64,000 bases of DNA from Thermoplasmata archaeon (lineage in GTDB: Archaea; Thermoplasmatota; Thermoplasmata; Lutacidiplasmatales; UBA184). The position numbers and the translations under genes were made by a program. The stretch is from contig JAKAWP010000004.1 of NCBI GenBank assembly GCA_021816955.1, forward strand, positions 117-64,116, in the 5' to 3' direction. The notes beneath the pieces are model-generated. The model searched no databases. It was not told where the DNA came from and saw only the letters and a program-made list of their open reading frames with translations. Of the stretch, positions 19,414 through 56,873 are shown one piece after another (position 1 is the first letter of the stretch; the number at the start of each line of letters is the position of its first letter).

Positions 19414-19488
19414 GGGACTGTGGGGTAGCTTGGTCCATCCTTCGGGGTTCGGGACTCCGAGACGCCAGTTCGAATCTGGCCAGTCCCA
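19414..19488 (+). tRNA. tRNA-Pro (anticodon CGG)
   Basis: Hand-folded 75 nt. The acceptor GGGACUG/CAGUCCC is perfectly paired. The anticodon stem is CGGGG/CUCCG with loop UUCGGGA. The T arm is GCCAG-UUCGAAU-CUGGC, and the discriminator is A. No CCA is encoded. Confidence 0.9.
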
Positions 19489-21059: not shown

Positions 21060-22130
21060 TTACGCCCTCTCGCGTTCGCTCAGGTCGACCTGACCGTCCG
21101 TCTTGGCGACCGTCTCGGGCTCGACCGCGCGGTTGATCGTGATCTCGTTCACGATCCCCAGCATCTGCGCCGCCTGGATGAGGTTCGATACGATTCGCTG
21201 TACCGCAACGGCAGTTGTCGAGTCGCGAACTCTCCGGGCGAGGGAGGTGCCCAGGGCGTGGTAGTTCGGGAGATGCTCTCGAATCGAGTTGAGAGCGGCG
21301 TTGGCCCGGGTGACGGAGAGATGGGTGAACGCGTCCATCGTGGCGACGAGGTGGGCGTCCAGCTCCTGGAAGCATTCGGATAGGTCGTGGGGAAAATCTC
21401 GGGATACCTTCGGAAGGTCGGTGTGGATTCCCTCCAGCTCCCGGCCGATGTGGGTGAGGAGGTCGCCGATCTCCTCCAGCATCTTGACGACGACCCGGTA
21501 CCCCATCTGGTAGTGATGGCTCGCCACGCCGATCTCCCGCGCCACCCGGAAGTCGTTGGATGCGATCAGGAGTTGTCGGATCATCAGAAGATGCAGCCGG
21601 TCGATCTCCTCCTCCATGCCCGGAAGCTCCGCGAGCCCCTTCGATTCGTGCCCCGAGAGCGCCTGGAGGCAGGCCTGGAGTTGGGCCCGGAGCATTCGCA
21701 CGACCTGATCCAAGATCCGAGACAGGGGGTACTTCGCAGGATCCACGAAGTTCTGGATCTCGATCCCCTCGGAAGATTCGGCGACCACGCTCATGCCGAG
21801 GATCCGACCGACGGTCTGCCCGACTTCTTGGCGTTGGGACGCCGAGAGGCCTCCCGGCGCCGTGATCTGCACGAGATCGTGGCCGGTGACGTAGGCACCG
21901 ACCAGGACTCTCGACAGCAGGTTGGGCGGAAGACGGGTCGCCTCGATCCGGAGCCGCCGCTCTCCGGCGGGTCGTCGGGATTCCGAGGGCACGAGGGAGA
22001 GCTCGAGGCGTCCTTCGCCCAAGTCGTGGAACTGGATGGCAGTCCCGACACGCACTCTCATCGCGGCGGTCCACGCCTTCGGTAGCGTCACGGCAAGGGA
22101 GGAGCCGCCCGTACGCTGTACGCGGCGCAT
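21060..22130 (-). CDS. AbrB/SpoVT-domain plus PhoU-domain regulator (archaeal phosphate-uptake-regulator type)
   Basis: Trimmed to MRRVQRTGGSSLAVTLPKAW (an AbrB-like swapped hairpin). This is followed by helical PhoU-like repeats (...EIDRLHLLMIRQL..., ...AFTHLSVTRANAAL...). Confidence 0.8.
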   Translation of the reverse strand: MRRVQRTGGSSLAVTLPKAWTAAMRVRVGTAIQFHDLGEGRLELSLVPSESRRPAGERRLRIEATRLPPNLLSRVLVGAYVTGHDLVQITAPGGLSASQRQEVGQTVGRILGMSVVAESSEGIEIQNFVDPAKYPLSRILDQVVRMLRAQLQACLQALSGHESKGLAELPGMEEEIDRLHLLMIRQLLIASNDFRVAREIGVASHHYQMGYRVVVKMLEEIGDLLTHIGRELEGIHTDLPKVSRDFPHDLSECFQELDAHLVATMDAFTHLSVTRANAALNSIREHLPNYHALGTSLARRVRDSTTAVAVQRIVSNLIQAAQMLGIVNEITINRAVEPETVAKTDGQVDLSERERA

Positions 22131-22312
22131 CGAGCCGGGACGGTTGTCCCGACCTTCGGTTTCACTGCCGACTCCGGGCACGCTGGACCATCCACCTCCC
22201 GGTCTTAACGGTTGACGAGACGCCTCTATGCAGCCCCGGGTCTCTCGCCGGTCTCCTGATTCTCCGTGCGGTAGGGAGAACACCCACATGAGGGGACGGG
22301 TCGATATTGCCA

Positions 22313-22329
22313 TTGACCCAAAGGGTCAA
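22313..22329. promoter_or_regulatory. perfect 7-3-7 inverted repeat TTGACCC-AAA-GGGTCAA (candidate operator)
   Basis: Read directly from the sequence. It sits between an A/T patch (TCGATATTGCC, 22301-22311) and the GGAGG/ATG of the DoxX-like gene. Confidence 0.4.
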
Positions 22330-22339
22330 CGGAGGCAAC

Positions 22340-22921
22340 ATGACGACATCGCACGCGGGGATACAACTGGCAGAAGAGATTCGGGCGACCGCCAAGGTGT
22401 TCCAGGTACCGTCGGCAGCCGAGACCAACGCAAGGGGGACCGTGAAGACGCTCTCTGCGATGCGGGTCCTGTTCGGAGCGATCTTTCTGTTCGACGGGAT
22501 TCTCAAGTGGCAGCTGTTCGCGACCGGACAGATGCAGGGTGTCATCGACGGACAGGTGTACACCCCGGCCTGGCTGACGTCAAATTGGGTGCTCTTTGGA
22601 ACGTTGGTCGGCCTCGGAGAGACGGCCGGTGGCCTGTTCCTCATCCTTGGCATCTTTCAGCGGCCGGCCGCCCTGTGGAGTGCGCTCTTGATGGGGTTCA
22701 TCTGGGCCTTCGGCGGCTTCGGTGGTTTCCCCAGTGCCATCGGAGCGTCCTGGAACACCGCCGGATACACCGATCTGGGAGGGGACCTCATGCTGAGCCT
22801 CGTGTTCGTGGTCCTCGTCTTTGCTCCCTATGCCTACGGGCTGGCAAAGGCATGGAAGCTCCGCGAACGGTTCAGCGGCGCCGGCATGCGGGACCGGGTC
22901 CTCCGGGCGCTCCTCACCTAA
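22340..22921 (+). CDS. DoxX-family membrane protein
   Basis: Trimmed to the ATG preceded by GGAGG. It has four hydrophobic helices and the DoxX-like AMRVLFGAIFLFDGILKW segment. Confidence 0.6.
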   Translation: MTTSHAGIQLAEEIRATAKVFQVPSAAETNARGTVKTLSAMRVLFGAIFLFDGILKWQLFATGQMQGVIDGQVYTPAWLTSNWVLFGTLVGLGETAGGLFLILGIFQRPAALWSALLMGFIWAFGGFGGFPSAIGASWNTAGYTDLGGDLMLSLVFVVLVFAPYAYGLAKAWKLRERFSGAGMRDRVLRALLT

Positions 22922-24246
22922 ACCCCTTCGGAGCGGGAGTCCTTCACGACGGCGGGTTCCGGCTGCCCTTGGCCACCGGCCGTGATGGACTCCTTGTTCG
23001 TCTCGTGGTAAACGAACCGGCCTTACGGCGCGCCTCCGTGACTCGGGCCTTCACCCGATCGCGGGCTTGGCGGACATGCCTTCGGTCTTGCCGGACAGCA
23101 TCGGGAACGCGGGGCTGGGGTCCAGGGCGGAGAGAGCGTCGATGGACCTGGCCGTCTATCCCTAGTTCTCACCGGGCACCTCCGAGTGCTCACGAGAGCT
23201 GGCCCAGTACTGGGCGGGGTTCTCGCTTCCGTCCTCGACACGCGGCCCCGAGGGCCGCTTCAATGAGATCACCGTCCGGGCCCATATGCCTGCCGTGCGA
23301 GGAAGTCGGCCTGCCAACTCCGAGAGACCCTCGGGATCCCCTTGGCGGTGCTTTGGACAACCCGGTCGACTACACCCTCGGTGGCCTTGTCCATCTCGAC
23401 CGGGAGGACTAGGCTCTTTGCGGGCATTGCGAGCCTATGCCGGGACGGATATTTTTCTCCCGGTCTCATTCTCATCCGGCAAATCGGACCGGCCTCTGCG
23501 CTGCCGAACCCTCCATCTTCATCGAACGGAAACGCCGACTCCTATCGACGGGGCGGTCGAAGGCGCGACGGACCGGGCTGCCGCGGTCCTCCGATTGCCG
23601 GGGAGAAGCGGTCGCGGTAGAGCGCGGGCCGATCGATATCGGACGCCCTTCGGCGGCTGAAACGAGCCTTGGTCGAACCCCTTCCCGTTCGACCCACTGT
23701 GGATCGCGACCTCCCCTCGGGCGGGGCGAGCCGCCGGGGGGCGAGTAGGATGTTCAAAGGACGAGGCGCGCCGAGAGACTGGTACGACTGGTGTGCCTCC
23801 GCAATCTGGAGCCTGATCGCACTCCTGCGGTGGGCGAGAAGACGCCGGCAATCTCTCCCCCCCTCGCTCCGCGAGGTTGTCCGAAATGCCGATCCGATAC
23901 CGCGCGGCGCGTTGGAAACCGCCGGTCGGCCCGAACCTTCGGCCGTCCGTTCCCGGCATCGCCGCTGCCACAGCCGCGCCTCTCTCGTCACTAGGCCCGT
24001 CGGTCGCGCACCCGGCCGCTATCGGAGGAAGCGCGGCCAGGGTGCCTAACTGTTCCCTCGGAAACCCCGCAAGTCGCCATGGGCTGCCCAGCGGCTCCTC
24101 TCGTTCAGGATCAGCGATCTCGCGTCGGAGTCCGTGAGACGCCGTGCCCTTCCCCGTCCCCGAACGAACCCCATCGCCTCGATCGCTCCTCCCTCCGCCC
24201 CGAAGGCGTGGGTTGAGGCGGCCGCGCGTGCCCGGGGTGTCGGCAA

Positions 24247-27200
24247 TCAGCCGATCGGTGCGCCGCACCGAGTACAGAACCGAAGTCCGGGCCGGACCAC
24301 GTTGCCGCACTGCGGACACGCCCGTCCGCCCTCAGGTCCGATCGCTCCCGGGACGGTCGGCGGCGGGGATGGGCGAGGGTCCGTCGGGGACGGGGCCGCG
24401 AATCTCTCGCTCGGAGAGCTCCGCGGCGGAGTGGGTGGTGCGGCGGGAGCCGCCGGGCCTGGCGCCTCGGCAAGGAATCGGCCACCCAGCGGCGCGCCGC
24501 ATTCGCGGCAGAAGCGATCATTCGGGAGGTTCGAGCGGCCGCAATGCGCGCACGTCGCGATCCCTTGCGGACGGGGGGAGACCGGGAGAGACGGGGCGAC
24601 TGGAACCGGCGATGTCCCACCGGGCCCCGCCGGGGTTGGAGAAGGAGGGGGTGCCGGCGTTGGAGCCGACCATTGAGCGCGAATGGTGGACGGCGGCGAA
24701 GGGGGACCCGGCGGGGAAGGGGGCGTCGAGAGCGAGGCGGCGGGCGGAGGTGGGGGGTACCGAGGCGGAGGCGGTGGGACGTGCGTCGGCGGTACCGGCG
24801 CAGTGGTAGGGGGAGGGGGCCAGTGGTACCCGTACCCGGTCGCCGCCAGAGGTGGGCCCTCCGGCGGCTTCGGGTACTGGGCGGGTGCCGTCGGTGGAGG
24901 GGGATACAGGGGGGCGCCGGGCCAAGCGTAGCCTCCCGTGCCCGGGGCCGAGCCGGGCGGGGGAGGATAGGCCGTGGGAGGAGGACCAGTCTGGATCGCG
25001 CGCCGTCGGCGGGCGCGACGTCGGGCGGATCCGACCGACGCGGCAACGATGATCAGAATGACGATCACCAGCACCAGCCAAAAGCCGAGCGGGCCAAGGC
25101 CGAGGAACGAGAAGAACGATTCCAGGGTCGATAGGAAATTCCCTCCTCCGCCCGGGGCGACCGTGAAATTCAGGAAGACGGTCAGGTTCTTGGCCACCGA
25201 TAGCGGTCCGTTTGCCGGGGTGCTTGCGTAGCCGGACGGTGCGGAAACGGTGTACGTGTAATTGCCGCTCGGTAGGAGGAAGCTGAGCGTCGAAGCCGAG
25301 GTACTGTTCGTGCGGTACGGTGAAGATCCCACCTGGATCGTGACGGACCACGACGCGTTCCGCGTGCCGTTCGCGTGGAAGACCACAGAGTACTGAGGTC
25401 CTCCACCGTCCAGCGTGGAGAGGTTGGTCGCATAGATCGAGCCCCAGCCGGTGACCAGGTCGTACCCTGCCAAGGCCGGATAGCGGTAGTTGCTACCGGC
25501 CGTCACATCGTAGAACGCATTGAGCGACAGTCGGCCGGCCGTCTGGTTGGTGCCGAGACTATAAAGCGCGGGATTCAGGTAGCCGAGAGGTTCCAAGTGG
25601 CGCACGGCGTGCACTGCATCGATGGTGGCGATCAGTCCCGCCGTCAGCGGGCTCGCGATCGAGGTGCCCCAAACGCCAACGGTCGGGTTGAACTGGCCGT
25701 TGCTCGAGATCGCGATGATCGTGTTGTTCGCGATGGCCGATAGGTCCGGGACGGCCCGTTGGGCTCCCTGGCCGGCCCCTAAGATCACCGAATTCGCGGA
25801 GCTCGCCACCTGCCAGTTCGGCTCCGCGAAATTGGGAGAGATCCCGCCGACGCAACCCGCCGGCCCTCCATCCGCGGCATCGGAAATGTACCACGCGATC
25901 TGCTGCTGGATCGCAAGGCTACTCGAGAGGGTCACCGTTGTCCCTCCGACCGCCGAAACCCCGTACGTGTTGTACGCCATCGTCGACGGGAACTCCACGC
26001 CGTCCGGGGTGCCGCTGGTCCACTTGGAGCTCGCCGGGTTGTCGCCCGAGTCGCCGGTCGACGCGAGCACGGTGATCCCTCGCGCCGCGCACTCTTGAAG
26101 CGGGGAGGTCCATCCGCTCTGGAGGCCGTCAGAACCCCCCCAGGAGTTCGTGATCACTTGGACGGACGGCAGGTTCACGGCCGTCACGAACGCGCTCAAC
26201 AAATTGGCGAATGTGGGGCTTGGACCGTAGACGTTGTAGATCGTCGCCCCGGGCGCGGTGCTACCGACCATCTCGAGGTCGAGCGTGTTTTCGAGCGTCG
26301 CATCGGTGGTGTCGTACTGGGCGCTCGGGCCCGGCGGGGGAGCTCCTCCGACCGGATCCCCGATCACCGTGGCATGGGGCTGTCCGGCCGGTAGCGTGGC
26401 GTTGAAGTACGCCTGGATGTCGGCCGGGTCAAACGGGCCGACCGGAGTTCCGCTCGCATTCGTCCCGGACCAAAGGACCGTGGCGACGACCTCGGTCGTC
26501 GGATAAGCGACGCTGAACAGCGGAACCTCATCGTACGCCGGCTGGAGGTCGCTCCCGTAGATGTACTGGGCGCCGTTCGCGCCGGTGATCGGCGAGGGGT
26601 ACCCCTGCGCCGATTCGATCGAATGGGAAGCGGTCGAAGCGACCGGGGTGACCGACCGAAGAGCTTCCCCGAGCGGAGCAAAGTGGGCCGTTGCATAGTC
26701 GTCGAGGCCGTAGACCCCCGAAACCATGCCCGCGAGCACAGCGGGCAAGGAGGGGGGGTGAACCGGAGCGTAGAACGCGCCCTGTCCCGGGGAGACGAAA
26801 CTCCCCCATCGGGTCGAAAAGAGCGCGCCCAAGGCCGTCGCGCTTCCCGAGACGCCGATGTTCGATCGGTCCGAGAACGCATGGACCGTAACCCCGGGGA
26901 ACGAGCCGAGGTAGGCGAGCGCGGCCTCGTAGGCGGAGGAAGGCACCCCGAACTCCTGCGCGAACTCGGCCGCGGTGAGGTAATGATGATAGTCGGGGGC
27001 CGACGGATCGTTGAGCGAGGCCAAGAGGGCCGCAAGCTCGGCCTCGTGCGAGAACTTCAGCTCGATCGTCGCCTCGATGGTTCCTGTGTAGCTCCCGACC
27101 AAGGGAGCTCCGCTCGGCCAGTCGACCGGGCTCGCGACCGAGACTCGAGGCGAGGCGGCGATGTCGGCGAGCGTCAGATCGGACCCCGGCGCTCCCGGAG

Positions 27201-27348
27201 CCCCGGCGCCTTCGGCGGCAGTCATCGGAATGACCAAAGCGAACGAGACGAGCGCGCCGAAGACAACCCCGGCGGCGAGAAGCCCTCGAAGCCACGTCGT
27301 CCGACCGGCCGACGGAGGCCCCGGGGTCTTGCCGCCCTTACGTTCCAT
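24247..27348 (-). CDS. membrane-anchored S53 (sedolisin/kumamolisin-type) serine peptidase with a cytoplasmic Pro-rich tail and two zinc ribbons
   Basis: Trimmed to MERKGGKTPG...LLAAGVVFGALVSFALVIP (signal anchor). It has a pro-kumamolisin activation-domain segment (DYHHYLTAAEFAQEFGVP) and the S53 motifs ENTLDLE, SWGG and WGTSIASPLTAG. These are followed by a second TM helix, a basic stop-transfer RRRARRRR, and the zinc ribbons CAHCG..CRECG and CPQCG..CTRCG. Confidence 0.85.
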   Translation of the reverse strand: MERKGGKTPGPPSAGRTTWLRGLLAAGVVFGALVSFALVIPMTAAEGAGAPGAPGSDLTLADIAASPRVSVASPVDWPSGAPLVGSYTGTIEATIELKFSHEAELAALLASLNDPSAPDYHHYLTAAEFAQEFGVPSSAYEAALAYLGSFPGVTVHAFSDRSNIGVSGSATALGALFSTRWGSFVSPGQGAFYAPVHPPSLPAVLAGMVSGVYGLDDYATAHFAPLGEALRSVTPVASTASHSIESAQGYPSPITGANGAQYIYGSDLQPAYDEVPLFSVAYPTTEVVATVLWSGTNASGTPVGPFDPADIQAYFNATLPAGQPHATVIGDPVGGAPPPGPSAQYDTTDATLENTLDLEMVGSTAPGATIYNVYGPSPTFANLLSAFVTAVNLPSVQVITNSWGGSDGLQSGWTSPLQECAARGITVLASTGDSGDNPASSKWTSGTPDGVEFPSTMAYNTYGVSAVGGTTVTLSSSLAIQQQIAWYISDAADGGPAGCVGGISPNFAEPNWQVASSANSVILGAGQGAQRAVPDLSAIANNTIIAISSNGQFNPTVGVWGTSIASPLTAGLIATIDAVHAVRHLEPLGYLNPALYSLGTNQTAGRLSLNAFYDVTAGSNYRYPALAGYDLVTGWGSIYATNLSTLDGGGPQYSVVFHANGTRNASWSVTIQVGSSPYRTNSTSASTLSFLLPSGNYTYTVSAPSGYASTPANGPLSVAKNLTVFLNFTVAPGGGGNFLSTLESFFSFLGLGPLGFWLVLVIVILIIVAASVGSARRRARRRRAIQTGPPPTAYPPPPGSAPGTGGYAWPGAPLYPPPPTAPAQYPKPPEGPPLAATGYGYHWPPPPTTAPVPPTHVPPPPPRYPPPPPAASLSTPPSPPGPPSPPSTIRAQWSAPTPAPPPSPTPAGPGGTSPVPVAPSLPVSPRPQGIATCAHCGRSNLPNDRFCRECGAPLGGRFLAEAPGPAAPAAPPTPPRSSPSERFAAPSPTDPRPSPPPTVPGAIGPEGGRACPQCGNVVRPGLRFCTRCGAPIG

Positions 27349-27409: not shown

Positions 27410-28078
27410 TCAGAGTCGAGTGACGAGGGTGCGGAGTTTGGCGCCCGCGCCTTTGAGGAACGGGCCGCCGTGGTAGGTGAAGAGCGATTCGATGGAGAGC
27501 TGGGCCACCCGGCGGGCGGAGATCTGGGCGGTCGGAGAATGCAAGGTGAACTCCTTCGGCGTGAGCGACACCTCCGAGGCGTCCCCGAAGAACAGATCGC
27601 CCGAGAACAGCCACCGCTTTTCGGGCTGATAGAAGACGAGATGGCCGGGGGTGTGGCCGGGAGTGTGGTACGCCACGAGCCCTCCCGCCGCATCGACCGA
27701 ATCGCCATCCTTGAGAACCTCGTCGATCGTAACCGGCTCGGCCGGCGGCACTCCCGGGCCGTCGTACGGCGGCTTCTGGGCGATGAACGCAGATTCGATC
27801 CAGTGCGCGAACGTTCGCGCTCCCGTCAGTTCGATGAGCCGTCGCAGGCTGCCCGTGTGGTCGCGGTGGAGATGGGTGATCAAGATTTTCTTCACCTGCC
27901 GCGGCTCGGCGCCGATCCGTCCGAGGTAGCTCATGATCGCCGAATCCGATCCGGGAAGGCCCGTGTCCAAGAGCGTCCAGTTCCCTCCGCGGTCCTTGAG
28001 CAGATAGACGTGGGTCGAGAAGTCCGGCGATGGGTCGACGCCCTCCACGAGGTGCACTCCGGGTGCGATTTCGGGCAT
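27410..28078 (-). CDS. MBL-fold metallo-hydrolase
   Basis: 222 aa with the HLHRDHTGS (HxHxDH) and HTPGHTPGH motifs. Confidence 0.85.
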   Translation of the reverse strand: MPEIAPGVHLVEGVDPSPDFSTHVYLLKDRGGNWTLLDTGLPGSDSAIMSYLGRIGAEPRQVKKILITHLHRDHTGSLRRLIELTGARTFAHWIESAFIAQKPPYDGPGVPPAEPVTIDEVLKDGDSVDAAGGLVAYHTPGHTPGHLVFYQPEKRWLFSGDLFFGDASEVSLTPKEFTLHSPTAQISARRVAQLSIESLFTYHGGPFLKGAGAKLRTLVTRL

Positions 28079-29450: not shown

Positions 29451-30185
29451 GTGCCGCGCGTGCCGATCGTCGCCGGGATCGACCTCGACGCGCTCCGTGA
29501 AGGAGACGTGGTCAGAATCGACGGAGCGGCCGGTGACGTTCGCGTGATCGGCGTGAAGGCGGTGAACGTCGTCACCGCCTTTCTCGAGCGCGCCGACGGG
29601 CGAATATTGCTGCTGAAGCGGTCCTCGCGCGTTGGCTCCTTCCAAGGACGGTGGGCCGGGGTTTCCGGGTACCTCGAGGACCCGACACCGCTCTCCCAGG
29701 CCCTTCGCGAGATCCGAGAAGAGACCGGTATCATCCGTTCGAAGCTGCGCCTGGTTGCCCGGGGGCGTCCGTTGTGGGCTCGGGACGGCCCCCGGGCGTT
29801 TCGGGTTCACCCGTTCCGGTTCCGCACCCGGACCGTTCGCCTTCGACTCGACTGGGAGCATACGGCTGCGGCCTGGGTCGATCCGGCGACCCTCCGTCGC
29901 CGACGCACCGTCCCGAAGCTGGACGAAGCATGGTCGAGCGTCGCCGACCGTCCCCTGCCGGCGGCTTCCGCCGCGAGAAGGCATAAGACCGAGAAACCAT
30001 CCGCGAACCGCTGGGCTGGTAGATCAGTTGGAAGATCGCCGGTTTTGCAAACCGGAGGCCTCGGGTTCGAATCCCGACCAGTCCATCCCGAGAACGGCTC
30101 CGACCCGTCGGCGACCTCGCCACCGGGCGCGACACCTTCGGACACGGAGAACCGGCCCGGTGGTACGGTCTCCGGTGAGGGTTGA
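29451..30185 (+). CDS. NUDIX hydrolase (both ends uncertain)
   Basis: Contains the Nudix box GVSGYLEDPTPLSQALREIREETGI. The proposed start is the GTG at 29451 (or 29460). The frame has no stop until 30183-30185, so it reads through tRNA-Ala on the same strand. Confidence 0.6.
   Translation: MPRVPIVAGIDLDALREGDVVRIDGAAGDVRVIGVKAVNVVTAFLERADGRILLLKRSSRVGSFQGRWAGVSGYLEDPTPLSQALREIREETGIIRSKLRLVARGRPLWARDGPRAFRVHPFRFRTRTVRLRLDWEHTAAAWVDPATLRRRRTVPKLDEAWSSVADRPLPAASAARRHKTEKPSANRWAGRSVGRSPVLQTGGLGFESRPVHPENGSDPSATSPPGATPSDTENRPGGTVSGEG
30013..30085 (+). tRNA. tRNA-Ala (anticodon UGC)
   Basis: Hand-folded 73 nt. The acceptor GGGCUGG/CCAGUCC includes the G3:U70 alanine identity pair. The D arm is GAUC-AGUUGGAA-GAUC. 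The anticodon stem is CCGGU/ACCGG with loop UUUGCAA. The T arm is UCGGG-UUCGAAU-CCCGA. Confidence 0.92.
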
Positions 30186-33985: not shown

Positions 33986-36900
33986 CTACAGATACTGGGA
34001 GCACCGGTGGCAGTAGAACCGACCGTACTGCGGGTAGAACGTCGCGGCGTTCCCGCATCGGGGGCAGTTCGCGGCCATCGGGGTCGGGACCGTTCGAGCC
34101 GCGGTCGAACCCGCGGGGGACGGCATCGTTCCCGCCGGTGGGGAACTCCCCGGCGGCGGGAACCCGCTTCCCGATCCCGAACCGCCGGAACGAACGGAGG
34201 GAGCCGCGCCCGTCGCCGGCGGCCGGCCCCGGCGGCCCGCCCGCGAGGCGACTACGGCCCCGACGATCGCAACGATTCCCACGACGACCGCAATCTCGAC
34301 GTAAAGCATCGGGATCCCGAAGAGTGTCCCGCTCCCCCCACCGCCACCGGTGGGATTGAACGTCACGGTCGGACCGCTCGTGGCACCGGCGACCGTGAGC
34401 GTCCCGCTGCCGCCGCTATAGCCGGACGCCGTCGTGGAGTACTGATACGTGCCGTTCGGAAGCGCGACCACGATCGTCGCCCGACCGTCGGACCAGACGG
34501 TGATCGAGCTCCAGGGGGGCGGAAAGCCGGGGGCCGAAGGCGAACTCGCCGGGGCGAGCGTGAGCGACCAGTTCGTCCCCGACGGAAGGCCCGAGGCGGT
34601 GAACGACACCGAAAACGCCCGCTCGAACTCGATGGGAACGACGGAGCCGCGGCCCGCCACGACCACCGTGCCCGATGCGATGTTCGGGATCCATCCGGTC
34701 ACGTTCGCGACCTCGTACGGATACGTCCCGTTATCGAGCAGGACCACGATCGTCGATCCCGACGAGGCATCTTCCACCCCGTCCACGAACACGGCCCAGA
34801 GCGCGCCCGTCGGCAATCCGCTCTCGCTGAAGGTCACCGGATACGCGCCCGCCGGTACCGAATGGAAGCCGATCTGCTTGACCTGCCCAGCCCCCAAGAC
34901 GAACACCGCGCCCGAGCTCGGCGAGGGAACGTACCCGGTCACGAGACTGACCTGGTACGCATACGTCCCGTTCCCCGCAGTATAGGTGAGCGTCGAAGAC
35001 GTCGTCGTGCTTTGCGTACCGTTGAACGTCACGCCCCAGAGCGTACCCGTCGGCAACCCGATCTCTTCAAACGTCACGTTGTAAACCCCACTCGGCGAGA
35101 CCGAAGTGAAGACGATCCCTTGGGTGGCGGGACCGCCGTCGATCGCGACGACCCCCGATGGCGGCGATGCCGAATAGCCCGCGACCCGGCCCACAGTGAA
35201 CGCATACGACCCGTTGGTAGCGTTGAGGTCGATGATCGCCGTGACCGAGCTGTACGACCGGTTGCCCACCACGACCGACCACGGCGTGCCGACCGGAAGG
35301 CCGATCTCCTCAAAGCGGAGCTGATAGGTCGTCGGCGCGAACTGGAGAAGGACGGTCAGGTTTCCGTTCAGGGAGACCGATGACCGGTACGGAATGGTCG
35401 TCTGGAAGTATCCGGGAACCAACCCGAGGGTCCGCTCGTACCCCCCGCTCGGAAGTGTGAAACCGAGCACGCTGCCCGTCGTCGCATTGAAGGCCACCCG
35501 GGAGGAGGTGGTGCTGTTCATCCACATCTCCCACGCGGTCCCGACGGGCAGTCCTGTCTCTTCTACCGTCATCGTGTAGTTTGTGACCGGGAGCGGCCGG
35601 AACACGATCGCTTCGCTCGTGTTCTGGCCGGCGATCGTGATCGTCCCGCTCTCCGGAGAGGCAGCGAAGCCGCTCGCGTTCACCGAAAAGGCGTACGTGC
35701 CGTTCGTGAGACCGACAACCGTGACGTTGGCCGGCGCCGTCTGCGTGTTCGATTCCCCATTGATCGTCACCGTCCAGGGGGTTCCCGCCGGCAACCCGGA
35801 CTCTGCAAAGGTCGCCTGATACGTGCGGGGCGTCGCCACCGGGACGTACGACAGGACGCCCTGTTCTGGGCTTCCTCCGACCACGCTCAGCCCGTAGGTG
35901 TTCGCGCCGGTCCGGTTCCAAGAGAGGTTCGCGGCGATCTCGCCCGTCTGATCGACCTGCTGATCGAAGACGGCCGTCCGGGCGGGAACGAACGAGGACG
36001 AGCCGTACGGCTGAACCATCGCGACGAGCGATCCGTTCGTCGGTCGCTGAAATTCGCCGGTGGCACCGGACGGCCCGCCCACGAGTCCGAACTGCGGCGA
36101 GAGCCCGCCGAGCATTGGATTGTTGGGGTACGGACCGTTCGAGTAGTTCCTCCCCTGCCAGGAGTAGTTGTAGCCGAGCGAGCCGATGACGTACGCCGCC
36201 CCCGGCACGGGAAGGGTCAGGTTCTGGCCCGCCACGGAGAAGTCGATTTCCTGGCTGTTGAATCCCGGCGGACGGATCAGCGTGGTGCGGATCACGAACG
36301 TCTTCGGCAGAGAAACGGTTACATTCGGCGGGAAGTTGTACTCGTACACGGACTGTTGGGGATACAACCCGTAGAACGGGAAGATCACCCAACCGGTGTA
36401 CGCCATCCCCCACTGGGACGGCCCGCCTCGGATGTAGATCACGTTCTGGACCCAGTAGATCGGTGCGCCGAGACTGTTCGCGAGGAAGAAGTTCTGCTGA
36501 ATGGAGGCGTTGTACGTCGTGTAGATGCTACCCGATTTGTAGGACGTCACCTTAAGCGCGTTCAGGGACAGCGTATCCTCGACTCCCGAGAGCCGCCCGC
36601 TCACTCCGTTCGAATTGACGTTCAACATGTACATCGTGTAGTTGTACGCGTCGATCGATCCCCAACCGGTGACGAGGTCCCAACCTCGCAACGCTCCGTA
36701 TACCTGATTGTGGCCGCTCGTGACGTCGTAGAAGGGGAGCGTCGGAAGCGGCGAGTTATACGTTGACCCCGGAGAGGGGATGAATCCCACGTACCCCGTC
36801 GAATTGAACGGGGCCGCCTGGCGATCCCCGAGGGCGTACAGGCTCGGGTTCAGGAACCCGAGCCAAGCGTTCCCGTCCGCCTTCAAGACGTGGTCGATCG

Positions 36901-38713
36901 TCGCCACCACGCCCGCTTCAAGGGGAGACGCCACGCTCGTTCCGGCGATCGGAAAGAACGGCCCTCCGGTCGACGCGTTGGTCGCATCGTAGGTCATCGT
37001 TCCGACGGTGATCGTGAGAAGCGTGTTGTTCGCGAGCGCCGCGATGTCCGGCGTCGCGCGCCCGGACATTCCGGTCGACTGGATCACACGGTTCGCCGAG
37101 CTGTTCCTCTGCCAACTCGGCTCGGGGAAGACCGAACTGACCCCGCCGGTGGAGCCCTCCTTGTTCGTCTGATACCACACCGTTTGGTTCGCCAAGGTCA
37201 GATAGCCCGGCGTTCCGCTCGCCGCATCCAATGTCGGGGTGGTTCCGCCGACCGCGGTGACCCCGAACGAATCGTACGCCATGGTCGACGGAAAATTGAC
37301 ATCGGAGTTGCCCGAATCCCCGGAGGCGGCCAAGACCGTGATGCCGCGCGCTTGCGCCTCTTCGAGACCCGTGTACCAGGCCGTGTCGTTCTGGTCGGTG
37401 CCGCCCCAAGAGTTCGTCACCACCGAGACGTTGCGGAGGGGGGAACCGGCCGGCGGGTTCAATACGGTCGTGAAGGCGGCATCTAGATTGACGAGCGTGG
37501 GGTTCGGTCCGTAGACGTCGACGATGGTGGAGCCGGGGGCCGTGCTCCCGATCATTTCGAGGTCAAGCGTCGTCTCGACGGATGCGCCCGTGACATCGAA
37601 CGCCGCGGACGGCCCGGGCGAGAGCGCACCGTTCACCGGCAGACCCTCGATCTGGGGATGCGGCTCGCCGGCCGGAAGCGTTTCATTGAAGAACAGGTTC
37701 ACATTGCTCGGCACGTACGGCGCGGTGTAGTTCGAAGGCGAGCACGGGACCGAGGTGCTGGCCGGGACGCGGCACCCTCCCCACAGGATCGACGCGACGA
37801 CCCCATTGGTCGGATACCCGGCGTTCTGGAACAACCCGAGCTCATCATAGGCGACCTGGAAATCCGGAGCGTACTCGTACTGAACCCCGTTCACCGTGGC
37901 CGGTGGTACGTACCCGCCTTGGACGGACGCCGGGACGCTACGGGTCACGGGCGGCCCGTGCACCGAGGGAAGTAAGCGGAGCGAGACGGGGTGGACCGTG
38001 TACATCGAGTACGTGCTCAACCCGACGACTTCCGCCACATACGGCGCGACCGGGGAGGGCAACCTCGGACTCCCCGTCGGCGCTAGGTAGGCTCGCCCGT
38101 GAAGCACGTACTCTCCGAGTTGGACCCCAAAGATCTCGGCGATTTGGCGGGGCGTTGCCTCGAAGGTGAGCGACAGTCGGTCGGCGGTCGTCGTGATCGG
38201 CGCCACCCCGAACGATCGAACGAACGCTTCGAGGGCGTGATACGGCCCCGGCGCCCCCCCGAACTCGTGATCGAACTGCTGTTGGGTCAGATATCGGTGG
38301 TACAGCGGAGAGAGCGGATTCGACAACGCCAAAAGAAAATCGCCGAGAGCCGAACTATTCGTCGTCCGGAGGCTGATCAGGATCGGCACAGGGGCGGCGG
38401 GTGCCGGCCCGACCCATTGCGCGCCCGCGAGCCCGATGCCGGGCTCCCGATCCGGCACGTCGACCCGCGGAGCCAAGGCAAGCGCTCCGAGACCGCCAGC
38501 GATCGCGGGCGGGGTCGGACCCGGCGACGCGGGGAGCCCTGAGGGTGCCGAGGTGAGCGTGGAAGGAACGAAGAAGACGGCCGCGACCGCGACCACGAGC
38601 GCAAGTTGGACCGGCGTTGGTCGTCCGAATCGTCGATGCGCCCCTATCTCCACGGGATTCACCGATGTGGATTGTTGGTACGTGCGGCTGCTTAATACAG
38701 TGACTCTGCCCAT
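33986..38713 (-). CDS. giant membrane-anchored S53 peptidase with a thermopsin-like segment, six tandem beta-sandwich-type repeats, a TM helix and a C-terminal zinc ribbon
   Basis: It has a pro-kumamolisin segment (LSPLYHRYLTQQQFDHEFG) and the S53 motifs ETTLDLE, SWGG and AGTSVASPLEAG. A thermopsin-like segment follows (NASIQQNFFL...YWVQNV). The repeats are YxVTFxExGLPxGTxW modules. The TM helix is YVEIAVVVGIVAIVGAVVA, and the tail ends CPRCGN...CHRCSQYL. The start is the ATG at 38713; an alternative GTG at 38662 lies ~30 nt after a TATTAAG box. Confidence 0.85.
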   Translation of the reverse strand: MGRVTVLSSRTYQQSTSVNPVEIGAHRRFGRPTPVQLALVVAVAAVFFVPSTLTSAPSGLPASPGPTPPAIAGGLGALALAPRVDVPDREPGIGLAGAQWVGPAPAAPVPILISLRTTNSSALGDFLLALSNPLSPLYHRYLTQQQFDHEFGGAPGPYHALEAFVRSFGVAPITTTADRLSLTFEATPRQIAEIFGVQLGEYVLHGRAYLAPTGSPRLPSPVAPYVAEVVGLSTYSMYTVHPVSLRLLPSVHGPPVTRSVPASVQGGYVPPATVNGVQYEYAPDFQVAYDELGLFQNAGYPTNGVVASILWGGCRVPASTSVPCSPSNYTAPYVPSNVNLFFNETLPAGEPHPQIEGLPVNGALSPGPSAAFDVTGASVETTLDLEMIGSTAPGSTIVDVYGPNPTLVNLDAAFTTVLNPPAGSPLRNVSVVTNSWGGTDQNDTAWYTGLEEAQARGITVLAASGDSGNSDVNFPSTMAYDSFGVTAVGGTTPTLDAASGTPGYLTLANQTVWYQTNKEGSTGGVSSVFPEPSWQRNSSANRVIQSTGMSGRATPDIAALANNTLLTITVGTMTYDATNASTGGPFFPIAGTSVASPLEAGVVATIDHVLKADGNAWLGFLNPSLYALGDRQAAPFNSTGYVGFIPSPGSTYNSPLPTLPFYDVTSGHNQVYGALRGWDLVTGWGSIDAYNYTMYMLNVNSNGVSGRLSGVEDTLSLNALKVTSYKSGSIYTTYNASIQQNFFLANSLGAPIYWVQNVIYIRGGPSQWGMAYTGWVIFPFYGLYPQQSVYEYNFPPNVTVSLPKTFVIRTTLIRPPGFNSQEIDFSVAGQNLTLPVPGAAYVIGSLGYNYSWQGRNYSNGPYPNNPMLGGLSPQFGLVGGPSGATGEFQRPTNGSLVAMVQPYGSSSFVPARTAVFDQQVDQTGEIAANLSWNRTGANTYGLSVVGGSPEQGVLSYVPVATPRTYQATFAESGLPAGTPWTVTINGESNTQTAPANVTVVGLTNGTYAFSVNASGFAASPESGTITIAGQNTSEAIVFRPLPVTNYTMTVEETGLPVGTAWEMWMNSTTSSRVAFNATTGSVLGFTLPSGGYERTLGLVPGYFQTTIPYRSSVSLNGNLTVLLQFAPTTYQLRFEEIGLPVGTPWSVVVGNRSYSSVTAIIDLNATNGSYAFTVGRVAGYSASPPSGVVAIDGGPATQGIVFTSVSPSGVYNVTFEEIGLPTGTLWGVTFNGTQSTTTSSTLTYTAGNGTYAYQVSLVTGYVPSPSSGAVFVLGAGQVKQIGFHSVPAGAYPVTFSESGLPTGALWAVFVDGVEDASSGSTIVVLLDNGTYPYEVANVTGWIPNIASGTVVVAGRGSVVPIEFERAFSVSFTASGLPSGTNWSLTLAPASSPSAPGFPPPWSSITVWSDGRATIVVALPNGTYQYSTTASGYSGGSGTLTVAGATSGPTVTFNPTGGGGGSGTLFGIPMLYVEIAVVVGIVAIVGAVVASRAGRRGRPPATGAAPSVRSGGSGSGSGFPPPGSSPPAGTMPSPAGSTAARTVPTPMAANCPRCGNAATFYPQYGRFYCHRCSQYL
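34349..35821 (-). repeat. six tandem ~76-89-aa domain repeats (Y/F-x-V/L-T/R-F-x-E/A-x-GLP-x-GT-x-W ... NGTY-x-Y/F)
   Basis: Read from the translation. The repeat starts are YQATFAESGLPAGTPW, YTMTVEETGLPVGTAW, YQLRFEEIGLPVGTPW, YNVTFEEIGLPTGTLW, YPVTFSESGLPTGALW and FSVSFTASGLPSGTNW. Confidence 0.8.
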
Positions 38714-38777
38714 ATGCTTACGGGGCGAGGTCCGGGCCGAACGGCGGGTCTCGATACGGCCGCCACGCGCCGGCAAA

Positions 38778-55753: not shown

Positions 55754-55903
55754 TCAACGGGACCGGGGTTGGCCGGGAGGACAAGTCCGGCAGCACGCGG
55801 CATCGACGGCGCAGCAGGCGCAGCAGTGACAGCATCCTTCGGGACAATCGCAGCAGGCGCAGGACGGTCGCGGGGGGCGCCGGGCGCCCGATGTTTTCGT
55901 CAT
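55754..55903 (-). CDS. Cys-rich mini-protein (49 aa, 13 Cys), metallothionein-like
   Basis: This is the ATG-initiated tail of track ORF 55754-56242: MTKTSGARRPPRPSCACCDCPEGCCHCCACCAVDAACCRTCPPGQPRSR. A GGAG lies 7 nt upstream of the ATG. It fills an otherwise empty 388-nt gap between the V4R and VOC genes. Confidence 0.45.
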   Translation of the reverse strand: MTKTSGARRPPRPSCACCDCPEGCCHCCACCAVDAACCRTCPPGQPRSR

Positions 55904-56069
55904 GGTAGGCTCCGTCCGACCGAATCGTACCCGGTACCGCGCCGGGAAACGATAGGCTCTTCGCCTTCCACCGGGCCGCGACTCGCGACCCGAATAGAGG
56001 CGGCGACAACCGGGGCCGCCATCCCGTCCGGTTCCCGGCTCGTCGGATCGTTCCGCGGGCCTCTGCGGG

Positions 56070-56873
56070 CTACCGGGACCGCACGATCTCAAATTCGCAC
56101 GCCGGATCTCCCATCGCGAGGCATTTTCGTTCCGTGCACGTGACCTCCCCTCCGAGGATGACCGTGCCCGCTCCCGCGAGATAGCCGCGGTAAAACTGAG
56201 AGTAGGGAGCGTACGCCTGGCGGCCGGCGCACTCCAAGCCATCCTCCAGCCGGAGCCGCATCGACCGGCCGCTCGGATCGATGGTGGCGCTCCGCACGCG
56301 GCCCCACCCTACCGCCGCCCACACGCGGAACGCATATTCGAGATGCTGACGGCCCCACTCCACCCCGACCTTCCCGAAGTACCCCGCGAAGGCGGCCCGC
56401 CCTAAGTTGGACCCTTGTTCGTAGATCAGCACCGAACCGCCCGTTCCCATCCGGTCCCGGATGGCATCCAGCATGTTGAAGAAGTAGGTGCTTGTTAGCG
56501 AGAGGACGCGCTCACCGGATTCGATCGACCGCACCGGCAGCGCCGTTCCGACGAGCAACCCGTCCTCGCCGGATTCGACCCGAACCTCTTGGACGACGTC
56601 GATCGCGCGAAGCTTTTCCGTGAGGTGATCGGCCGAGAGCTTCGGCCCCTCCGCAAACATGTGGAGTATCCCATAACCGCGGCTCGACACGGCCGATCCG
56701 GAGAGGTGGAGCACGTTGATCGACTCGGACCGCACGACATTGGTCACGGCAGTGACCGCGCCCGGGCGGTCGACGAGCCGGATCGAGAACCGATACAACT
56801 CCTTCCCGGGCCGGTGAAAATAGATCGGGACTTCGTACCAAGCGAACGGGTCCCCTTCGGACGACGTTCCCAT
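56070..56873 (-). CDS. ACT-like domain plus V4R (4-vinyl reductase) small-molecule-binding domain protein
   Basis: 267 aa with an ACT-like YRFSIRLVDRPGAVTAVTNVV and the V4R C-terminal signature GLECAG...CTERKCLAMGDPACEFEI. Confidence 0.8.
   Translation of the reverse strand: MGTSSEGDPFAWYEVPIYFHRPGKELYRFSIRLVDRPGAVTAVTNVVRSESINVLHLSGSAVSSRGYGILHMFAEGPKLSADHLTEKLRAIDVVQEVRVESGEDGLLVGTALPVRSIESGERVLSLTSTYFFNMLDAIRDRMGTGGSVLIYEQGSNLGRAAFAGYFGKVGVEWGRQHLEYAFRVWAAVGWGRVRSATIDPSGRSMRLRLEDGLECAGRQAYAPYSQFYRGYLAGAGTVILGGEVTCTERKCLAMGDPACEFEIVRSR

Follow-up and report, generated by a model that had tools for sequence, protein, structure and literature searches.

A predicted type-I membrane-anchored S53 peptidase with a cytoplasmic zinc-ribbon tail from an uncultured mine-drainage Thermoplasmata archaeon

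The 64-kb stretch of contig JAKAWP010000004.1 analysed here (the window, meaning the full stretch, to which coordinates and strands refer) belongs to an uncultured Thermoplasmata archaeon from mine drainage with high guanine-plus-cytosine (GC) content. On its minus strand it carries a complete gene for an S53 pre-pro-peptidase of 1033 amino acids (aa), in which a C-terminal transmembrane (TM) anchor is followed by a tail with two zinc ribbons. The gene product is identical to a protein of the public collections, encoded on a 64.8-kb contig and referred to here as P0001. As far as such evidence goes, sequence and fold establish it as a member of family S53, because the sedolisin fold, the prodomain and the full Ser-Glu-Asp triad with its oxyanion Asp are all present, and it is highly probable that the gene encodes an intact protease with type-I topology, the ectodomain being predicted outside the cell and the tail in the cytoplasm. 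Judged as a whole, an acid-active, type-I membrane-anchored S53 peptidase with the cytoplasmic zinc-ribbon tail as an accessory docking handle is on balance a rather probable explanation of the sequence and the structural model.

Results

Gene structure and integrity of the reading frame

The gene and the parts of its product are arranged as follows.

24247..27348, minus: complete S53 pre-pro-peptidase gene with C-terminal TM anchor and zinc-ribbon tail, 1033 aa
27381..27386, minus: possible TATA-like element CTTTAT, ~35 nt upstream of the ATG (weakly suggested, from reading the sequence)
27199..27348, minus: N-terminal export signal or signal anchor, aa 1-50, with basic n-region
26659..27198, minus: prodomain, aa ~51-230 (Pfam Pro-kuma_activ at aa 90-217)
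25411..26613, minus: S53 catalytic domain, aa ~246-646
26290-26292, minus: codon of catalytic E353
26278-26280, minus: codon of catalytic D357
26050-26052, minus: codon of oxyanion D433
25660-25662, minus: codon of nucleophile S563
25159..25395, minus: single beta-sandwich module, aa 652-730, with 8 strands in the AlphaFold model
25021..25095, minus: TM helix, aa 752-776, with hydrophobic core at aa 756-773 (FWLVLVIVILIIVAASVG)
25000..25023, minus: stop-transfer basic cluster RRRARRRR, aa 776-783
24553..24999, minus: Pro-rich, predicted disordered cytoplasmic linker, aa 784-932
24499..24552, minus: zinc ribbon 1, CAHC-N10-CREC, aa 933-950 (CAHCGRSNLPNDRFCREC)
24319..24498, minus: Pro/Ala-rich spacer between the ribbons, aa 951-1010, of low model confidence (predicted local distance difference test, pLDDT)
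24265..24318, minus: zinc ribbon 2, CPQC-N10-CTRC, aa 1011-1028 (CPQCGNVVRPGLRFCTRC), ending 5 aa from the C-terminus

The frame runs uninterrupted from the ATG at 27348 to the stop codon at 24247-24249. Upstream of this ATG the same frame is open to 27708/27825, with a GC content of 0.60-0.70 at third (GC3) and 0.82-0.84 at second (GC2) codon positions, compared with a GC3 of 0.74-0.90 in the protease body. As this extension has non-coding codon statistics and overlaps the metallo-beta-lactamase (MBL)-fold gene at 27410-28078, a longer start at 27708 was ruled out and the start at 27348 is considered reasonable. The gap between the MBL-fold gene and the ATG measures 61 nt and contains the CTTTAT element.

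The locus was found in metagenomes labelled 'mine drainage', and Logan contigs (assembled contigs, not raw reads) from two such samples cross the beta-sandwich and the TM helix and reach into the tail. One spans 24115-26489 with one substitution and zero gaps, the other 23800-25757 with zero differences, so that the frameshift or stop at about 25000 that the original prediction had considered is absent from both. Stronger support for a single-gene fusion comes from comparison, as the same fusion recurs in many independent assemblies (see below). The S53 gene with its fused tail is an intact single unit. The one substitution in the first contig is an A>T change at 25854, carried by contigs of two samples (X1, X3), that replaces Cys499, one of only two ectodomain cysteines of P0001, by Ser.

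Prodomain and catalytic domain

The N-terminal signal has its hydropathy peak at aa 22-40 and contains no twin-arginine motif; AlphaFold models aa 17-38 of it as a helix, after which comes AAEGAGA. Behind the signal, Pfam recognised the pro-kumamolisin activation domain (PF09286, aa 90-217) with an expectation value (E) of 3e-16 and 60.4 bits against a cut-off of 23.5. The catalytic motifs ENTLDLE (aa 353-359), SWGG (aa 402-405) and WGTSIASPLTAG (aa 560-571) follow in order, and E353, D357, D433 and S563 are invariant in 121/121 aligned relatives; the calcium-site residues D535, G634 and G636 are likewise conserved in this alignment. A sequence search of the PDB returned human TPP1 at 1.9e-9 and Pseudomonas sedolisin at ~3e-7, with the GDSG and GTSxASP motifs aligned, while the NCBIfam scan of P0001 gave zero informative matches.

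An AlphaFold2 model built from an alignment of 97 homologues reached a pLDDT of >90 across the pro and catalytic domains, and its prodomain superposes on that of pro-kumamolisin (1t1e). In a Foldseek comparison with the PDB, kumamolisin, sedolisin and TPP1 matched with E between 1e-20 and 1e-34: pro-kumamolisin 1t1e was found at 1.4e-34 (TM-score 0.80), followed by kumamolisin-As at ~1e-21 (TMt 0.82), sedolisin at ~5e-21 and TPP1 precursors, whereas subtilisins reached only ~1e-10. An acid pH optimum would fit an origin in acid mine drainage, which is circumstantial only.

Beta-sandwich, membrane anchor and topology

The catalytic domain is followed by a beta-sandwich of block-mean pLDDT 77-94, which corresponds to one copy of a repeat of ~85 aa (family consensus Y.V.F.E.GLP.GT.W...NGTY.Y) that is present in multiple copies in longer paralogues. 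The sequence FFSFLGLGPLG, in the region of aa 744-755 (about 25084-25119), precedes the TM helix, which has a Kyte-Doolittle score of 3.08 and is modelled as a helix at aa 752-776.

Several features of P0001 point to a type-I orientation. Within 20 aa on either side of the TM helix, there are 0 Lys or Arg residues on the N-terminal and 7 on the C-terminal side. All 11 N-x-S/T sequons lie N-terminal to the helix, 6 of them in the beta-sandwich, and 0 lie C-terminal to it. Out of ten cysteines, eight are ribbon ligands and all of these are C-terminal to the helix. The ectodomain is acidic (45 Asp+Glu vs 14 Lys+Arg), the tail basic (7 Asp+Glu vs 22 Lys+Arg). On general chemical grounds, a Cys4 zinc site would lose its metal outside the cell, where the medium is very acidic and oxidising, which again argues for a cytoplasmic tail.

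The zinc-ribbon tail

The linker that joins the membrane to ribbon 1 comprises 149 residues with a block-mean pLDDT mostly <50 and at most 55, and Pro accounts for 31% of the whole tail. At ~0.3 nm per residue, we estimate that a fully stretched spacer could bridge tens of nanometres. No DNA-level tandem repeat was found in the linker, and its expansion by slippage was rejected on this ground.

Ribbon 1 is matched by Zn_Ribbon_1 at aa 933-954, and the DZR match extends over aa 933-1029; ribbon 2 is matched by Pfam Zn_ribbon_3 and DUF7575 at ~1007-1032. The scores lie above the Pfam cut-offs, both for Zn_Ribbon_1 (PF13240; 1.3e-11 over two stretches, 44.3 bits vs 25) and for DZR (PF12773; 1.4e-10, 41.6 bits vs 27.3). 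The signature is the generic CPxCG...(R/H)(F/Y)CxxCG.PL, and AlphaFold models ribbon 2 with short strands at a block-mean pLDDT of 66-82. Throughout the window, the pattern CxxC-N8-16-CxxC occurs only in two S53 paralogues, P0001 and a second protein described below, and in one probably spurious Cys-rich open reading frame (ORF).

The original prediction, made from the letters alone, had proposed this order of signal or anchor, prodomain, S53 catalytic domain, one beta-sandwich, TM helix and tail, with intact catalytic motifs, a positive-inside stop-transfer and a cytoplasmic location of the tail; all of these are supported, and the AlphaFold model that it suggested as a check agrees with it. 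The two zinc ribbons stand as well, although the predicted spacing CxxC-N11-CxxC does not, as ten residues separate the CxxC pairs in each.

Spread of the tail within the family

The 120 best homologues all derive from metagenomes or genomes, and every named source belongs to Thermoplasmata or Thermoplasmatota, including Cuniculiplasma and Oxyplasma. Nearly all of these proteins combine an N-terminal hydrophobic signal with a C-terminal TM helix followed by Arg/Lys, and in most family members no more than 3-15 aa follow this helix. Bacterial relatives, mainly from Acidobacteriota, are 560-750 aa long and have no C-terminal TM helix.

A tail of TM helix, linker and ribbon is found in 12/120 best homologues. 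An exhaustive search yielded 218 clusters at E <= 1e-30, for which tail types were scored on the 150 best representatives at 50% identity: 14 have a ribbon tail, 63 a tail of <=20 aa, 25 a tail of 21-50 aa and 7 a longer Cys-free tail, while 41, many of them fragments, lack a detectable C-terminal TM helix. Among 3'-complete archaeal loci of GTDB species representatives, the ribbon tail occurs in 2/40. In a tree that was built by neighbour joining from the pro and catalytic region, ribbon-tailed proteins appear in at least 5 places, and their linkers are between 36 and about 150 aa long. From these data we conclude that the tail module was gained or lost repeatedly in the family.

The ribbon-tailed S53 architecture is thus not unique to P0001 and has already been annotated automatically by domain in databases. 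Our literature search on S53 peptidases and zinc ribbons in archaea retrieved general statements on S53 and Thermoplasmatales and generic remarks on zinc ribbons; the combination was not found. The earlier view that no sedolisin with a ribbon tail had been described therefore stands with respect to the literature, but the architecture is no one-off, as it occurs twice in the window itself and in the minority of relatives counted above.

P0002, which scores highest among the relatives, lacks a ribbon, and its tail of 76 aa contains no Cys. In contrast, P0003 keeps two ribbons on a tail of only 102 aa, and we regard it as a positional orthologue because its neighbours, PhoU/MazE-like and DoxX genes, are those of the window gene; a uniform lack of the tail among orthologues, against which the original prediction had to be weighed, is hence not observed. 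In an eight-member clade of soil Thermoplasmata, 8/8 proteins have one ribbon <=8 aa from the C-terminus, attached by linkers of 36-112 aa with 16-47% Pro, at an ectodomain identity of 47-66%. Three members share a similar gene context, on which grounds the clade is treated as orthologous: PurS/PurL lie upstream in P0009, P0041 and P0011, and a 57-aa ORF, AsnC, UPF0147 and RNA polymerase genes lie downstream in P0009 and P0041, while the contig of P0011 ends just past the gene. That the ribbon remains fixed at the C-terminus while the linker drifts at this level of ectodomain identity argues for selection on the ribbon itself. Selection thus keeps the ribbon where it is present, but the family in general can do without it.

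The module is not confined to proteases of this type, since in 633 kb of Thermoplasmata DNA three unrelated membrane proteins also end in a ribbon, namely an Rce1-like CPBP intramembrane protease, a 120-aa protein with a single TM segment and a protein of the DUF6114 type. No protein with an N-terminal ribbon and a TM helix was found in the same 633 kb. The loci of such C-terminal CxxC-N10-14-CxxC proteins, among them the DUF6114 protein with a RanBP-type ribbon, are:

L001, 15156-16250: C-terminal ribbon protein
L018, 5801-6163, minus: C-terminal ribbon protein
L043, 5386-6561: C-terminal ribbon protein

As a side observation, very deep contigs of the same mine-drainage communities (word depth 300-830 vs 7-10 for the present locus) match the gene only at 26224-26289 and 25438-25467, with 90-95% identity. 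These matches represent conserved S53 motif regions of far more abundant relatives.

Discussion

Proposed mode of action

By analogy with kumamolisin and TPP1, the precursor would be exported by its N-terminal signal, after which the prodomain would remove itself at low pH and thereby also cut the enzyme from its N-terminal anchor. Because this cleavage severs the N-terminal anchor, the mature protease would be held on the surface only by the C-terminal helix, where it could digest extracellular protein for a peptide-scavenging acidophile. The tail would reside in the near-neutral, reducing cytoplasm, in which a Cys4 zinc site is expected to keep its metal. It would be accessory to catalysis, having been gained or lost several times and occurring also on unrelated membrane proteins. 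We tentatively propose that it acts as a tethered docking or localisation handle, a possibility that falls somewhat short of an even chance on the sequence comparisons: the ribbon knobs on their flexible spacer would bind a shared cytoplasmic protein or nucleic acid, and such docking would govern where the surface enzyme is placed or clustered, or how it is retained or turned over. The original suggestion that the tail may anchor or sort the enzyme fits these data better than its alternative of signalling, although anchoring itself needs no ribbon.

Several observations weigh against this interpretation. Some 90% of the family have no such tail, and since most paralogues lack a ribbon, any role of the ribbon must be dispensable or specialised. 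No conserved gene suggesting a partner was found near ribbon-tailed loci, whose neighbourhoods differ by clade. Zinc binding by the tail is assumed from the motif, and ribbon 1 is modelled at a pLDDT of about 30 where the alignment is shallow. A search with aa 925-1033 of the tail against 5.8 billion proteins gave 128 candidates and one weak match at E 0.025, and outside the Cys motif the tail is, as far as sequence searches reach, without traceable relatives. Regarding the protease itself, position 639 (25432-25434), which aligns with a calcium-ligand Asp of sedolisin, is Asp in 76/121 and Asn in 35/121 relatives and Tyr in P0001, so the calcium site may be weakened while the catalytic residues are intact. 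Furthermore, no contig of the gene was detected in three small metatranscriptomes of the same study, a result that is uninformative at an organism depth of 7-10x.

Alternative explanations

Apart from docking, the tail might be a passive element, either a small, basic and quickly folding domain on a Pro-rich spacer that locks the C-terminus inside or steadies the anchor, or a near-neutral add-on spread by recombination. Its patchy gain and loss on the tree, the highly variable linkers, the presence of the same ribbon type on unrelated membrane proteins and the failure to find a conserved partner gene near ribbon-tailed loci are all consistent with such an element. However, a lock appears unnecessary, given that short-tailed paralogues reach the same topology with 3-15 residues after the TM helix, and the selection on ribbon position deduced above from the drifting linkers speaks against neutrality; we therefore consider a passive tail unlikely.

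In a second scenario, the ectodomain would sense or process something outside, and the tail would be a membrane-tethered regulator that, once freed by intramembrane proteolysis or altered in its binding, acts on transcription or on some other process in the cytoplasm. Predicted sensor-type gene pairs do include single-TM proteins that carry zinc ribbons on the cytoplasmic side (PMC12419801), and the ribbon is conserved across an orthologous clade. Regulated release or coupling across the membrane is nevertheless improbable, as the tail is missing from nine tenths or so of the family, P0002 included, linker length and ribbon number are not conserved, and the ribbons are of the generic Zn_Ribbon_1 type with no added effector domain in Pfam. 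In addition, no site-2 protease, rhomboid or regulator is conserved in the immediate neighbourhoods of the loci. The original prediction had suggested that an outside protease is coupled to an inside binding or signalling module; in view of the tails of 3-15 aa, the ribbon-free P0002, the variable linkers and the ribbons on unrelated proteins, a signal from the protease through the tail is not supported.

The region around the TM helix could alternatively be a sorting signal cleaved by an archaeosortase-like enzyme, as in PGF-CTERM proteins, which would leave the mature protease linked to a lipid or to the surface, with the TM helix and tail discarded or acting as a separate remnant. A tripartite appearance is indeed given in many family members (including P0009, P0011, P0028, P0037, P0052, P0056, P0082 and P0111) by a motif of the type F(L/F)GLP, FSLFGLSG or (S/T)xTE(L/I)Y, followed by the TM helix and a short basic C-terminus. 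Against this, the motif is not uniform across the family, FFSFLGLGPLG is not a known signature, and P0001 continues for 261 residues after the helix, unlike known sorting signals. The C-terminal sorting models of NCBIfam gave zero matches to P0001 at E <= 1, and no archaeosortase turned up, although none was specifically searched for. Sorting of this kind is accordingly very improbable.

Finally, an artefact of assembly or gene calling that joined two separate genes, one for a protease and one for a zinc-ribbon protein, is hardly credible, because even though high-GC DNA yields long spurious frames and the tail, with a GC3 of 0.62-0.76, is less distinctive than the protease body, two independent contigs from other samples cross the junction without an indel, both ribbons exceed Pfam thresholds in this very frame, and at least 14 independent clusters from other metagenomes show this fusion too, as does the window's own paralogue.

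Second paralogue and genomic neighbourhood

Further features of the window, together with a small ORF from two other loci, are listed below.

33986-38716, minus: second S53 paralogue, about 1500-1575 aa (Pro-kuma_activ 1.2e-19)
27410-28078: MBL-fold gene upstream of the S53 gene (Lactamase_B 3.7e-30)
19414-19488, plus: tRNA-Pro(CGG)
30012-30088, plus: tRNA-Ala(TGC)
55754-56308, minus: Arg-rich ORF ending in the Cys cluster CACCDCPEGCCHCCACC, probably spurious, overlapping the gene at 56070-56873
L082, 10083-10256: conserved 57-aa acidic ORF (MEELICNVEFLRGG...), directly downstream of a ribbon-tailed S53 gene
L084, 9984-10157: the same 57-aa ORF, likewise directly downstream

The second S53 paralogue, which likewise has a TM helix and a zinc ribbon, is located 10 kb from the main gene, and its extent was also recorded as 33986-38776. 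It has a prodomain, the motifs ETTLDLE/SWGG/ASGDSG/AGTSVASP, a large middle domain and about six beta-sandwich repeats, and ends with a TM helix, the basic cluster SRAGRRGR, a G/S/P-rich linker and a single terminal ribbon, CPRCGNAATFYPQYGRFYCHRC. This ribbon is of a different subtype and was unmatched by Pfam at E <= 0.01. The database call for the protein (P0185, 1496 aa) starts at 38476 and leaves out the signal peptide.

Both in the window (21060-22921) and on the orthologous JGI contig L001 (7294-9154), the S53 gene lies next to genes for DoxX and for a PhoU/MazE(AbrB)-like protein. In the window the S53 gene is inverted relative to these neighbours, and the search for flanking inverted repeats or inversion scars at the gene revealed only short repeats at chance level. 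The stretch of about 1.3 kb that separates the S53 gene, on its 3' side, from DoxX (22922-24246) contains no convincing ORF and is unusually long for a compact archaeal genome; an Rfam scan of it gave only a sub-threshold SECIS match. The 57-aa acidic ORF of the soil clade has no Pfam match and no counterpart in the window. The Cys-rich ORF at 55754-56308, also recorded with the extent 55754-56242, is probably a spurious high-GC frame and overlaps a real gene.

Wider significance

Among the extracellular acid proteases of acidophilic Thermoplasmata, the S53 peptidases are the main ones, and members of this family are the acid proteases reported to work outside the cell in Thermoplasmatales and Lutacidiplasmatales (PMC5155288, PMC9287336). 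The present survey indicates that in archaea these enzymes are as a rule type-I membrane proteins bound to the cell, in contrast to the soluble sedolisins of textbooks, and that a recurring minority of about 10% bears a cytoplasmic zinc-ribbon handle which is also found on other membrane proteins. It would be a bolder and rather doubtful step to regard the ribbon on its Pro-rich tether as a general address tag of Thermoplasmata that links surface enzymes, among them S53 proteases, a CPBP protease and other membrane proteins, to a common cytoplasmic machine. Such a machine could be a scaffold of the cytoskeleton or of membrane remodelling, an ATPase for quality control or extraction, or the apparatus of transcription. 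If true, it would imply inside-out positioning, clustering or removal of exposed proteases in archaea, many of which have no cell wall. Should the ribbon have a specific partner, the architecture would offer a foothold on one of the most common uncharacterised small modules of prokaryotic membrane proteins and would bear on how surface enzymes are organised in archaea without a cell wall; should it have none, the finding would amount to the correct annotation of an ordinary nutrient-scavenging protease.

Comparison with known systems

When P0001 is set against better-characterised systems, two comparisons fail. With respect to PGF-CTERM-type proteins, neither the signature motif nor a match to a curated model is present. 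With respect to membrane-tethered regulators, the immediate neighbours of P0001 are an MBL-fold hydrolase, DoxX and a PhoU/MazE-like gene, those of the other clade are PurS/PurL and RNA polymerase genes, and no cognate intramembrane protease or regulator was found in the loci examined.

The eukaryotic ADAMs, MT1-MMP and furin offer an analogy only, in that they too are extracellular proteases with one TM helix and a cytoplasmic tail. ADAM tails are Pro-rich and are used for localisation and partner binding (PMC10049710, PMC12940518). These enzymes are, however, not homologous to P0001, belong to different protease classes and have no zinc ribbon in their tails, and we know here of no archaeal partner domain of the SH3 or WW type for the tail of P0001.

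With the characterised members of the S53 family (MEROPS; PDB 1t1e, 1ga1, 3edy), P0001 shares the pro-kumamolisin activation domain, the triad with oxyanion Asp, the motifs ExxxD, GDSG and GTSxxxP, the superposition on pro-kumamolisin at a TM-score of 0.80 and an acidic habitat. Sedolisin, kumamolisin and TPP1 differ from it in being soluble, secreted or lysosomal enzymes whose chain stops shortly past the catalytic domain, without a TM helix or cytoplasmic tail, and P0001 has Tyr in place of a calcium-ligand Asp of sedolisin. Its own family is that of the C-anchored S53 peptidases of Thermoplasmata, annotated as 'S53 family peptidase' in Cuniculiplasma and Oxyplasma, with which it shares 40-50% identity in the pro and catalytic domains, the type of beta-sandwich repeat, the C-terminal TM helix and the basic stop-transfer. 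It departs from these in the further 250 aa of tail with two ribbons, the longest tail in the sets examined, and in having one beta-sandwich and no large middle domain, unlike members of 1200-1800 aa.

The tail itself most closely resembles the generic ribbon modules of prokaryotic single-pass proteins (PF13240, PF12773; CPxCG type), with which it shares the signature CPxCG...(R/H)(F/Y)CxxCG above gathering thresholds and the linkage of a cytoplasmic ribbon to a TM helix by a low-complexity linker. No function of this module in membrane-protein contexts was found to be established in the literature searched. In membrane proteins, descriptions of this module usually place it at the N-terminus, whereas P0001, as a predicted type-I exported enzyme, and the other Thermoplasmata examples carry it at the extreme C-terminus.

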